Positions 1,269 through 5,000 of a stretch of DNA of 5,000 bases are shown here, piece by piece; the first letter of the stretch is position 1; every line of letters starts with the position of its first letter. Origin of the DNA: a virus; IMG/VR virus record IMGVR_UViG_3300045988_026353, positions 1-5,000 of that record, one strand, 5' to 3'. The position numbers were made by a program, and so were the translations under genes. The notes below the pieces were generated by a model. That model was not told the DNA's origin. It did not search any database and saw only the letters and a list, made by a program, of their open reading frames with translations.

Positions 1269-1311
1269 CATTCGAGCAGCGCGTTGGGTACCCGCACGCT
1301 CATCGGGGTGT

Positions 1312-1352
1312 CACCGGAACCAGTTACATCAAGTAAGTAACTGGTTCCGGTG
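1312..1352 (-). promoter_or_regulatory. Perfect 16-bp inverted repeat with a 9-nt loop; candidate rolling-circle (plus-strand) origin hairpin
   Basis: The - strand reads CACCGGAACCAGTTAC TTACTTGAT GTAACTGGTTCCGGTG. No T-run follows it on either strand. The loop carries ACTTGAT (1334..1328). It is flanked by GTACCCGCACGC (1288-1299) and GTACCCGTGCGC (1354-1365). The structure itself is certain; the function is inferred. Confidence 0.45.
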
Positions 1353-1383
1353 TGTACCCGTGCGCAAATCGTTGAGATATCTG

Positions 1384-1990: not shown

Positions 1991-2281
1991 TTAGACTTCG
2001 GCCTGAGCAGGCGCGGCCGCTTTGGCGTCCTCAATCACAGATACAAAAGCAGTCGCGGCGGCAATCTGTGTCGGAGCAGAGGCTACAAGCTCTCCAGTCT
2101 CATCAGAGTACTGACCGATCTCATAAAGAAAGAAATCGTCGGGATGCTGACCAACAGTAGTACGACTATCACGAACGAGATCAGAGAAAGACCGAGATGC
2201 ATCAGCTACAGAACGACTGAAGAACGGCGTATTAAAAACCTGAAGTTTAGAGTCGAAAACGGAAAAAACCTTAAGGATCAT
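1991..2281 (-). CDS. VP5: VP5, small non-structural protein of gokushoviruses (96 aa)
   Basis: The ATG at 2281..2279 overlaps the VP4 stop as ATGA. MILKVFSVFDSKLQVFNTPFFSRSVADASRSFSDLV...HPDDFFLYEIGQYSDETGEL matches the VP5 pattern I recall (VFSVxDxK, PFFxRxxxxAxRSF, HPxDFxLYxxGxxDxETGE). Stop TAA at 1993..1991. Confidence 0.85.
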   Translation of the reverse strand: MILKVFSVFDSKLQVFNTPFFSRSVADASRSFSDLVRDSRTTVGQHPDDFFLYEIGQYSDETGELVASAPTQIAAATAFVSVIEDAKAAAPAQAEV

Positions 2282-3195
2282 GATTGATTCTCTTCCATAA
2301 TGCGTCTGAGTTTAGCGGCTTTCAGTTCTTGGACGCGTTCACGAACTGAAAGCCGTTGCGGCGAAGTCTCGCCAGTATCTTCAAAATCGCGTCCTCGCTT
2401 TTCGCGAAGACGCTTAATCTCTTCATAACGAACAATATCAGAACGCTCCAACAACTTATCAAAATAAGCTGGAGGATTCATCATAATCTTCTCGCTAAGA
2501 ATAAGTCGATCATTAGTATAAATATCAGTCATGTACTTTTCACAAAAGTCATGACCAATGCCAGGTTTAAGCGAGCAATGACAAAATTCAGCAACCTTAC
2601 CATCATAATGATCAAACTTCAAAGGACCTGTAATTTTCTTCGTAACATAACGAGCGACATAAGCGGCAGTCTCAAAGTTGACTGAACCAATCGAACTAAA
2701 GCCATAAGGCCAAAGTTTTTCAAGCGTACGGCTACGATATAAGTTATTACCTCGACGAATCGACCAAAGCTGTTTATCAACAAAGGTCACACCAAAAATA
2801 ATTGCATGATAGTGAGGACGGCCAAGCTTATCGCCATATTCGCCACACATAAAAAAGCGAAGCTGTTGACCAAAACGACTCATGAAGTATTTACGCATAC
2901 GCTTCATGAACAGCTGAAAATGCTCGTAATGAAGTGAGCCATCAGCAGGCAAATGAGCATCATCATAAGTCAACGTAAGAAACATGTTGTTCTTATGTGA
3001 CTTAGCCTCAACAACGCATCGAGCAGCCCATTCACGAGACTTAGAAAGCCTGCAACCAATACATTGACCACAAGGAATTTTGAACTCAGAAAAAGGAATA
3101 GCTTTAGACTGATCAAACGTTATCGCATTACGTTGTCCATCTTTGGTCTTCTGACCAGCAAGACGATACGCCGTTATCGGGTGAAAGCAAGGCAT
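2278..3195 (-). CDS. VP4: Replication initiation protein VP4, HUH rolling-circle endonuclease (305 aa)
   Basis: ATG at 3195..3193, with an in-frame TGA two codons upstream that fixes the start. Motif I is FLTLTY (aa 72-77). The HUH motif is PHYHAIIFG (HYH = nt 2814..2806, checked by hand). The catalytic double tyrosine is AAYVARYVTKK (Y179/Y183, YxxxY as in phiX174 protein A). There is an N-terminal Cys cluster, PCGQCIGCR. Confidence 0.95.
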   Translation of the reverse strand: MPCFHPITAYRLAGQKTKDGQRNAITFDQSKAIPFSEFKIPCGQCIGCRLSKSREWAARCVVEAKSHKNNMFLTLTYDDAHLPADGSLHYEHFQLFMKRMRKYFMSRFGQQLRFFMCGEYGDKLGRPHYHAIIFGVTFVDKQLWSIRRGNNLYRSRTLEKLWPYGFSSIGSVNFETAAYVARYVTKKITGPLKFDHYDGKVAEFCHCSLKPGIGHDFCEKYMTDIYTNDRLILSEKIMMNPPAYFDKLLERSDIVRYEEIKRLREKRGRDFEDTGETSPQRLSVRERVQELKAAKLRRIMEENQS

Positions 3196-3705: not shown

Positions 3706-4325
3706 TTCGCGAGATGAGCGGCGCCAACAGCGGAATTGGTAAGTGGCGCAGTTGAATTAAAAGGATTAATCAAATTCATCCACTGTCCAAACTTCCAAGC
3801 GCTTGAATGCTCTTTCATATAATCAAAAGCTAACTTCTGCTTCTCAGAAGCAATAGCAGAATTCTGAGTCATAAATTTCGCTTGCTTCAAATTCTCTTCT
3901 TGAATCTTATTAGCAATCTCTTGACCTTTCGTTTGAGACCACATCAAATTTGAAGAAGAATCAGAAGCGACAGCCTGAGCGCGTTTCAAACCTGCATCTG
4001 CTTGAAGTGCAGAATTCTGAACGTAAGTCTGTTTCTCAAGAGCATCTTTCAGATTCTTCTCAGAACGCTGAGTTGACGCTTCAGCACCAGACTTAAAAGC
4101 GCCAGCAAGATCAGGAGCAACAATTGTAGGCGCGTTGCCAGGAGCGCCAGAACCGCCTGTAGCTGAAAGAATCGGATTAAGACCAGCTTTGCGCATATCA
4201 GCAACTTCCCATTGATGCCGATTTTGAATCACTTCTTTCTGATGCTTCCAGCCAAAATACGCAGATAATGCAGAACTACCTAAATTGGCAGCACCACCTA
4301 TCGCTTCTGCCCAAGGAAATCCCAT
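3702..4325 (-). CDS. VP2: Minor capsid / DNA pilot protein VP2 (207 aa)
   Basis: ATG at 4325..4323 with AGGA upstream. It has a Gly/Ala/Ser-rich N-terminus (AIGGAANLGSSALSAYFG), the motif ADMRKAGLNPILS typical of gokushovirus VP2 as I recall it, and a Q/K/E-rich predicted coiled central part. It sits directly after VP1. Confidence 0.85.
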   Translation of the reverse strand: MGFPWAEAIGGAANLGSSALSAYFGWKHQKEVIQNRHQWEVADMRKAGLNPILSATGGSGAPGNAPTIVAPDLAGAFKSGAEASTQRSEKNLKDALEKQTYVQNSALQADAGLKRAQAVASDSSSNLMWSQTKGQEIANKIQEENLKQAKFMTQNSAIASEKQKLAFDYMKEHSSAWKFGQWMNLINPFNSTAPLTNSAVGAAHLAK

Positions 4326-4326
4326 A

Positions 4327-4389
4327 TCACTGTCCTAAAGCAAAGATAACAACAGTGCCAACAACAGCAAGCCAAATAACTAAAGCCAT
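4327..4389 (-). CDS. Candidate 20-aa fully hydrophobic micro-ORF (single transmembrane-length peptide) between VP1 and VP2
   Basis: AAGGAG (4400..4395, overlapping the VP1 TAA), a 5-nt spacer, then ATG at 4389..4387: MALVIWLAVVGTVVIFALGQ. The TGA at 4329..4327 lies 1 nt before the VP2 ATG. 12 of 20 codons end in T, like the bona fide genes. It is too short for the ORF track. Confidence 0.5.
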   Translation of the reverse strand: MALVIWLAVVGTVVIFALGQ

Positions 4390-4398
4390 AACAACTCC

Positions 4399-5000
4399 TT
4401 AAAAATGATCAACCAAGCCAGGCACTGAATACACGGGCATCGGACGAGCGCACTTCAAACGAATATACGAGTCAAACAAGAATTGCGGCTCATTCTGAAC
4501 GGCAATTACACGCTCAACAGGCGGATTATCTTGAATGAATTGCGACGAAAGAGTTGGCAAAGAGCTGAACTTCTGCGCTAAATGCCAGCTATCAAGCGGC
4601 TGGGAATCAGTCGAACGGAACTTGCCAGTAATCTGACCAGGATAGTAGCGATACTCGGCATAACGCTCTTGATAACCAAAAACCTTATCGTCATCAGCAG
4701 TGCCTTGAGCATAGATCTCTTTGTTAAGAACAGCTTGTTCGCCAAGATGGGCAAGCACGGGCCAGTAAAAGTCAAAACGACCTTGACGCGACCACATGCG
4801 GTTCAAACCTTGCTGGTAAGTCAGGTCAGCGCGAACATTCACAAAGCCAAAGACGTAGCCGTGCTCGACAAAAGACTTAGAAAAGCCATTGAACGAATCA
4901 GAGACAACACCGAAGGCGGCCAAATTACCCTGCGGAGTAATGTCACTCGTAGCCGAAGTCTGCTGAACAGGATTGATCGAAATACGGGCAGACGAACCGC
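4399..5000 (-). CDS. VP1: Major capsid protein VP1, C-terminal part (same gene as 1..1116; the unique part is 4399..4887 and 4888-5000 duplicates 1-113)
   Basis: It is in the same frame as 1..1116 across the circular junction. ...GNLAAFGVVSDSFNGFSKSFVEHGYVFGFVNVRADLTYQQGLNRMWSRQGRFDFYWPVLAHLGEQAVLNKEIY...RYAEYRYYPGQITGKFRS...WHLAQKF...IRLKCARPMPVYSVPGLVDHF, TAA at 4401..4399. The M at 4923 in the track is an internal TTG (Leu), not a real start. Confidence 0.95.
   Translation of the reverse strand, partial: GSSARISINPVQQTSATSDITPQGNLAAFGVVSDSFNGFSKSFVEHGYVFGFVNVRADLTYQQGLNRMWSRQGRFDFYWPVLAHLGEQAVLNKEIYAQGTADDDKVFGYQERYAEYRYYPGQITGKFRSTDSQPLDSWHLAQKFSSLPTLSSQFIQDNPPVERVIAVQNEPQFLFDSYIRLKCARPMPVYSVPGLVDHF
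4888..5000. repeat. Terminal redundancy: exact copy of 1-113
   Basis: See feature 1-113. Confidence 0.97.

Follow-up and report, generated by a model that had tools for sequence, protein, structure and literature searches.

The window, which is the whole 5,000-nt stretch of DNA analysed here, was found to be a complete circular gokushovirus genome of 4,887 nt, with positions 1-113 repeated at 4888-5000, a point absent from an earlier note on this DNA. Every gene of the window lies on the minus strand: VP1 (from 1116, wrapping to about 4399), VP2 (4325-3702), VP4 (2278-3195), VP5 (2281-1991), and VP3 (1912-1463). Pfam matches were obtained for the capsid F protein, the Chlamydia-phage scaffold, ORF5, and Rep. 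Its close relatives in GenBank are six gokushoviruses from human samples, with 83-92% identity over most of the genome. VP4, 305 aa in length, was identified by Pfam and motifs as a HUH rolling-circle initiator. It carries the motifs FLTLTY, HYH (128-130), and YVARY (179-183), and matched PF23343 (2.6e-25) and, weakly, PF05840 (phage GPA). Its previous assignment to the HUH/YxxxY family together with phiX174 protein A is borne out by these motifs and matches. A sequence search of the PDB with VP4 returned nothing meaningful.

The VP3-VP1 intergenic region spans 1117-1462 (346 nt) and is unusually structured, with a fold z-score of -8.1. The earlier note called it the only long non-coding region, which is essentially right, except that a 506-nt unannotated stretch between VP2 and VP4 carries three conserved small ORFs. 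This stretch is also unannotated in the related GenBank records, and the changes in its ORFs are mostly at third positions. All three are on the minus strand. They encode 32 aa (3705-3607), 39 aa (3599-3480; very basic, beginning MSRRHKLSRKASKR and resembling a J/VP8-type DNA-binding protein), and 76 aa (3404-3174; overlapping the start of VP4).

Several hairpins were identified on the minus strand of the intergenic region. Directly after the VP3 stop lies AAGGGATGGTTTCCATCCCTT (1425-1445), which is nearly invariant in close relatives. An intrinsic terminator, GATCGCCCGCTTGCGGCGATC plus T8 (1384-1412; stem 1412-1392), comes after VP3 and upstream of the module described below. It is also nearly invariant, with one loop substitution in PV067908. 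The module, placed after this terminator, probably sits in an untranscribed stretch, and a promoter scan of 1000-1600 found no sigma-70-like site. Just upstream of the VP1 start, a long hairpin AGGCGATCGGTTCGATGAGAGGGCTTTCTGAACTGGTCGCCT is followed by a T-run (1141-1189; hairpin 1189-1148). This element resembles a terminator placed before the capsid gene, and could be an attenuator or a complementary-strand origin. In the two most divergent close relatives its sequence is different and the T-run is kept.

The most prominent structure is the hairpin at 1312-1352 on the minus strand, with its 5' arm at 1352-1337, the 9-nt loop TTACTTGAT at 1336-1328, and its 3' arm at 1327-1312. As previously described, the arms are perfectly complementary (16/16 paired, 100%), and the genome has no longer perfect hairpin than this one. 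The longest perfect stems in 60 Markov-1 simulated genomes reached only 6-10 bp, so that the observed 16 bp far exceeds chance. The loop contains ACTTGAT (1328-1334, minus strand), and our scan of the window gave this single site (1334 to 1328) on the coding strand and no copy inside VP4, in accordance with what had been seen by eye. By analogy with phiX174, VP4 is predicted to nick between G1330 and A1329. The caution that a given 7-mer is expected somewhere in such a genome proved justified (0.85 copies expected; at least one in 120 of 200 shuffles), and therefore only the position of ACTTGAT in the loop is informative. An intrinsic terminator combines a G+C-rich stem with a T-run; no T-run follows this hairpin on either strand, and it was rightly held not to be one. 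In the minimum-free-energy fold, a possible extension of the stem, CGGG/CCCG, is formed across a 4x4 internal loop (1304-1360, minus strand). This extension is specific to the close clade and invariant there, which leaves covariation no variation to act on.

A second conserved element accompanies the core. The earlier note gave the phiX174 origin correctly: in NC_001422, positions 4299-4328 read CAACTTGATATTAATAACACTATAGACCAC, and the viral-strand origin is annotated at 4306. A recent mutagenesis preprint places the cut at G4305/A4306 within the 30-nt ori(+), and reports synonymous-lethal codons Q107-D115, which correspond to nucleotides 4299-4325 by our conversion. The equivalent 30-nt stretch of the window is TTACTTGATGTAACTGGTTCCGGTGACACC (1307-1336, minus strand), and its alignment (1336 to 1307) with phiX174 4299-4328 gave 15/30 identities, mostly within two end boxes. 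At one end, TTACTTGATG (1336-1327) agrees with CAACTTG|ATA in 7 of 10 positions, ACTTGAT being exact. At the other end, the base of the stem, lies TGACACC (1307-1313, minus strand), which was absent from the earlier note and which we propose as a binding or 'key' element of VP4. From the G of CTTG to the G of this box the distance is 18 nt, and exactly the same distance separates G4305 of phiX174 from the GAC of its GACCAC. In the window, the two boxes are separated by GTAACTGGTTCCGG, which forms the 3' arm of the hairpin and, unlike the phiX174 spacer, is not rich in A and T.

The earlier note had proposed comparing the intergenic regions of related gokushoviruses; this comparison showed a conserved loop core and compensatory changes in the stem. 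Across seven genomes of the close clade, identity in the intergenic region is 93%, with hardly any change in the first 200 nt. ACTTGAT is unchanged in all of them, one stem pair has changed from C:G to A:T in two genomes, and the second base of the loop varies. A BLAST search of the intergenic region against 50,697 phage records matched 133 records. Leaving aside the six close relatives, the matches listed cover essentially the hairpin only (query 109-162), nearly all of them in unannotated DNA. The shared module consists of the stem, (T/C)ACTTGATGTAACTGG, about 5 variable bases, and (A/G)(G/C)TGACACC, in this order.

An exact 16-mer scan of IMG/VR yielded at least 120 loci, and 109 of the 120 listed had a VP1 homolog by tblastn. 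The other 11 had neither a VP1 homolog by tblastn nor a hairpin, and were treated as chance 16-mer matches. Loci selected in this way are biased toward the 16-mer, and fair frequencies come only from a second sample of 80 loci picked by VP1 homology alone, of which 73 contigs were searched. For this search a covariance model was built from 55 modules and used at a threshold of E<=0.01. In the window it matched 1304-1363 on the minus strand with 56.3 bits. Of the 73 capsid-selected contigs, 63 were matched, 61 of them on the VP1 strand and two on the opposite strand. There was one match per genome unit, doubles reflecting the terminal redundancy of contigs. The ten contigs without a match include three fragments of 2-2.8 kb, one contig apparently without an intergenic region, and two with variant hairpins, the variants among unmatched contigs being such as CTTGTC or CTCGAT. 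It may be that assemblies break preferentially at the hairpin. The contig apparently without an intergenic region is L136 (IMGVR_UViG_3300029090_000029), a close relative with 86% VP1 identity; its length falls about 250 nt below that of its relatives, no module was detected in it, and this part of the genome is apparently missing.

Our covariance model also matched Chp2 and phiMH2K on the coding strand. At E<=0.01 it matched neither SpV4 nor phiX174, and a coding-strand hairpin of SpV4, GGGGCATAT-ATTACTTGTTATA-ATATGCCCC-ATTGACGAC, was found by a looser pattern search only. Judging from its presence in the capsid-selected contigs, in Chp2 and phiMH2K, and, as a similar hairpin, in SpV4, the module belongs to Gokushovirinae in general. 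Its location is whichever intergenic region is the principal one, VP3-VP1 in the window and VP3-VP4, VP2-VP4, or VP5-next gene elsewhere. A second candidate module in L011 lies inside VP2 in antisense, and was judged a chance match.

The family consensus of the nick core is (T/C)ACTTG(A/T)TG. In the 55-module alignment, no variation was seen in CTTG or in the T that follows the A/T position, the modules having been selected for CTTG[AT]T. Variant nick cores (CTTGTT, CTTGTC, and CTCGAT) with box and spacing kept were seen in L154, L185, L193, L134 (phiMH2K), and L133 (SpV4). TGACACC was present in 46 of 54 modules of the capsid-selected sample. The distance from the G of CTTG to the G of TGAC in that sample was 18 nt (n=33), 19 nt (n=20), or 17 nt (n=1), and all 130 unique modules with the box include 102 at 18 nt and 21 at 19 nt. 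The spacing is nearly constant at 18-19 nt, whereas stem length varies between 6 and 20 bp and loop length between 8 and 23 nt. In 15 of 129 modules TGACACC forms the 5' arm of a second hairpin directly downstream (L009, L018, L090, L105, L080, and others; for example GGTGACACCTTTTAGGTGTC). The window has no such hairpin.

The stem is maintained by compensatory changes. In the model-fitted alignment, 82.4% of the cells were paired versus 59.9% after shuffling, and the covariation score of 0.516 (shuffled, 0.157) was reached by none of 500 shuffles. Slid controls gave covariation scores of 0.114 at most. Eleven of the 12 stem pairs change on both sides. An unfitted MAFFT alignment agreed with this result (covariation 0.325 versus 0.148). 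Sequence conservation in the hairpin extends over the loop and the 3' arm, whereas the 5' arm follows by complementarity only. Such one-sided conservation together with pairing fits a protein recognition site on a single strand plus a requirement for folding. As at CRESS-type origins, the loop that holds the core and its predicted nick position is closed by a conserved stem in which both sides change together.

The hairpin is flanked by GTACCCGCACGC (1288-1299) and GTACCCGTGCGC (1354-1365), both present as the earlier note described them. Its suggestion that they could act as iterons was not supported. Both copies, the upstream one reading GCGCACGGGTAC on the coding strand (1354-1365, minus), are conserved in the close clade only, in which the entire 5' half of the intergenic region hardly varies, and they are absent from distant module-bearing relatives. 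By our estimate, 12-mer pairs with two or fewer mismatches occur about twice by chance per 346 nt, and the observed pair has two mismatches. Moreover, the downstream copy (1299-1288) belongs to another structure, being the 5' arm and loop of a third hairpin in the fold, GAGCGTGCGGGTACCCAACGCGCTGCTC (1274-1301, minus). In KX513869 and L059 this downstream copy carries CGCACGGGTAC, like the upstream copy. The TG to CA change in KX513869 makes the two repeats identical and weakens the stem of the third hairpin. These two genomes give a weak hint on the iteron suggestion. It is TGACACC, where the stem begins, that forms the real second element of the module, rather than the flanking repeats.

We then considered the orientation of the module. 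In 14 of the 123 genomes with a canonical module, it is opposite to all recognisable genes. The opposite-strand loci are L011, L020, L026, L032, L036, L041, L043, L058, L068, L071, L081, L088, L094, L127, L173, and L207; L032 and L081 were left out of the skew set, in which 14 opposite genomes were scored. Skew was measured at four-fold sites of VP1-VP5 homologs (tblastn matches). Same-orientation genomes had a median T-versus-A skew of +0.61 on the coding strand (87/109 positive), whereas the median of the opposite-orientation genomes was -0.73 (13/14 negative), with T at only about 0.04-0.12 in 13 of them. The two groups differ with a Mann-Whitney p = 8e-8, kinship being ignored. The exception among the opposite genomes is L173, whose skew is not inverted. 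Average-linkage clustering of VP1 placed 11 of the opposite genomes; the nearest same-orientation VP1 relatives of these 11 all had skews of +0.45 to +0.85, and the opposite genomes fall in at least 3-4 lineages. Four same-orientation genomes (L074, L079, L080, and L177) are exceptions too, having strongly A-rich four-fold sites, with skews of -0.52 to -0.66.

The T-rich strand therefore tracks the module and not the genes, in a statistical rather than an absolute sense. Previous work has indicated that ssDNA phages favour T-ending codons, which was attributed to C-to-T pressure on the single strand (PMC3278643). A T-rich strand that follows the module would be expected if the module defines the strand that is displaced and packaged. 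Orientation and skew fit a viral-strand origin and other packaged-strand elements alike, and cannot separate them. It is quite possible, if somewhat short of probable, that the module fixes the packaged strand, that its orientation has been flipped several times, and that the opposite-orientation lineages are negative-sense microviruses. To our knowledge, no negative-sense microviruses are known for this family.

We consider it likely that the module is the viral-strand (rolling-circle) origin of gokushoviruses, a variant of the phiX174 ori(+) set in a hairpin. This is largely what the earlier note had proposed, namely a candidate viral-strand origin whose hairpin loop carries a phiX174-type nick heptamer. 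Conservation, covariation, the phiX174 spacing, the type of Rep, and the skew speak for that proposal; the iterons are the part that found no support. Chlamydia and Bdellovibrio phages, as well as gut and environmental contigs, carry the module along with the phage Rep, and the Spiroplasma phage SpV4 has a looser version. The occurrence of the module across the phages of these hosts and these contigs points to a site for a phage protein rather than for a host primase. Against this reading, the 30-mer shares only 15 of 30 positions with that of phiX174, and the 7-mer alone is weak evidence. The open-access papers and preprints searched contained neither mapped nicks nor binding data for any gokushovirus.

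On the proposed mechanism, VP4, as a two-tyrosine HUH endonuclease, would recognise CTTG|AT and TGACACC, 18 nt apart, on the strand to be displaced, and would bind the TGACACC box at the base of the stem. The inverted repeat may extrude the core as a single-stranded loop from the supercoiled replicative form; alternatively, the hairpin may fold on the displaced strand at termination. VP4 would then cut at the predicted position between G1330 and A1329 and become attached to the 5' A, and the 3'-OH of G1330 would prime synthesis. After one round, the regenerated site would be cut and religated, and a circle would be released for packaging. The hairpin would thus take the place of the AT-rich spacer of phiX174. 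HUH enzymes cut single-stranded DNA. Since the spacer here is the 3' arm of the hairpin, either extrusion or folding of the displaced strand would expose the nick site.

The same hairpin might instead be a complementary-strand (minus) origin, a structure on the packaged strand that is read by the host RNA polymerase, primase, or PriA, on the model of the phiX174 n' site, the G4 oric, or the M13 minus origin. The stability of the hairpin and its place on the presumed viral strand, within the main intergenic region, are what one would expect of such an origin, and the association of strand and skew fits it equally well. In addition, intergenic hairpins of other microvirus clades have been discussed in that role (PMC9865509). 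However, a complementary-strand origin depends on host enzymes, yet the same loop and box are kept across unrelated hosts, and it is with the nick core and +18 box of phiX174, not with its n' site, that the conserved letters agree. Other hairpins of the intergenic region (1445-1425, 1301-1274, and 1189-1148) are also free for that role. We therefore regard a complementary-strand origin as unlikely to be what the module is, while the hairpin could have a dual role, serving complementary-strand synthesis in addition to carrying the nick site.

It is very unlikely that the module is a duplex binding site for a regulator or recombinase, such as a dif-like XerCD site or an operator, that is palindromic by coincidence. 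Its inverted-repeat layout with a central spacer would suit a site of this kind, as would its occurrence in either orientation relative to the genes, and some gokushoviruses do integrate via dif motifs in non-coding DNA (PMC7062461). But such motifs are rare in gokushoviruses (PMC7062461) and the module is nearly universal, and the best match in the window to the 28-bp dif-like motif with its XerC/XerD arms was 16/28, against a shuffled median of 17. Because the arms vary in concert and hold no constant sequence, base pairing is favoured over contacts of a dimer with both arms; neither the loop nor the downstream box is symmetric; and the orientation of the module tracks base skew, which is unexpected for a duplex site. 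A transcript-level element between VP3 and VP1, that is, a terminator, an mRNA-stabilising hairpin, or an attenuator, might be suspected from the strong hairpin between two genes on the coding strand of this genome. This hairpin lacks a T-run, though, and a real terminator stands just upstream of it, so that few transcripts should extend into it. The module runs antisense to every recognisable gene in 14 genomes, its position varies (VP3-VP1, VP3-VP4, VP2-VP4, or VP5-next gene), and an Rfam search of the whole window at E<=1 gave no match. A function in the transcript is thus extremely improbable.

The viral-strand origin proposed here would be a phiX174-type origin rebuilt around a hairpin, a combination that we did not find described before. 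No description of a gokushovirus origin was found in a corpus of 8 million open-access papers and preprints; an earlier mention in the Chp1, Chp2, SpV4, or phiMH2K papers is possible. Gokushoviruses are among the most abundant ssDNA phages of gut and environmental viromes. A two-box hairpin origin would supply a natural zero coordinate and strand for their annotation, as well as a target for VP4 biochemistry and for origin-plus-Rep vectors. If the module fixes the packaged strand, polarity and start coordinate could be assigned for thousands of metagenomic microvirus genomes. If the inverted lineages do package the antisense strand, Microviridae could no longer be assumed to be positive-sense throughout.

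In comparison with known systems, the module is most readily set beside the ori(+) of phiX174, G4, and alpha3 (Bullavirinae), with which it shares the ACTTG|AT core, the GAC box at +18, and the 30-nt extent. As in phiX174, it is present in a single copy per genome and goes with a two-tyrosine HUH initiator from the same virus family. However, the phiX174 origin is inside gene A, whereas the module of the window is intergenic (VP3-VP1). The phiX174 spacer is AT-rich and without a hairpin; here it is the G+C-containing 3' arm of a covarying hairpin. The second box is TGACACC rather than GACCAC. The initiators also differ in size, VP4 having 305 aa and protein A of phiX174 having 513 aa. Protein A, whose tyrosines are Tyr343 and Tyr347, is thought to melt the AT-rich spacer. 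One family of HUH initiators may have arrived at two solutions for exposing the nick site: in phiX174 the large protein A would melt an AT-rich spacer, and in gokushoviruses the small VP4 would make use of a hairpin.

The double-strand origins of pC194-family rolling-circle plasmids, with the nick site CTTGATA and a Rep_1 (PF01446) initiator, resemble the module in the CTTGAT core, the rolling-circle logic, and the HUH type of initiator (PMC10378824). In this comparison by core and Rep type, CTTGATG agrees with CTTGATA in 6/7 positions and VP4 is not a Rep_1 protein. Complementary-strand origins (phiX174 n'/PAS, G4 oric, and the M13 minus origin) are likewise intergenic hairpins on the viral strand, but host enzymes read them, their conservation does not extend across host phyla, and they have neither CTTGAT nor the +18 box.

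The origins of CRESS-DNA viruses (geminiviruses and circoviruses) are similar in form to the module. They have their nick site in the loop of an intergenic hairpin that is conserved and covaries, with a Rep-recognition element next to it, and they define the packaged strand, as is proposed for the module. Unlike them, the module has the loop TTACTTGAT instead of the nonanucleotide NANTATTAC, and no iterons are demonstrable. The CRESS Rep is a single-tyrosine HUH protein fused to an SF3 helicase, and VP4 differs from it in this respect. A hairpin origin in gokushoviruses would thus link microvirus origins in form to those of eukaryotic CRESS-DNA viruses.
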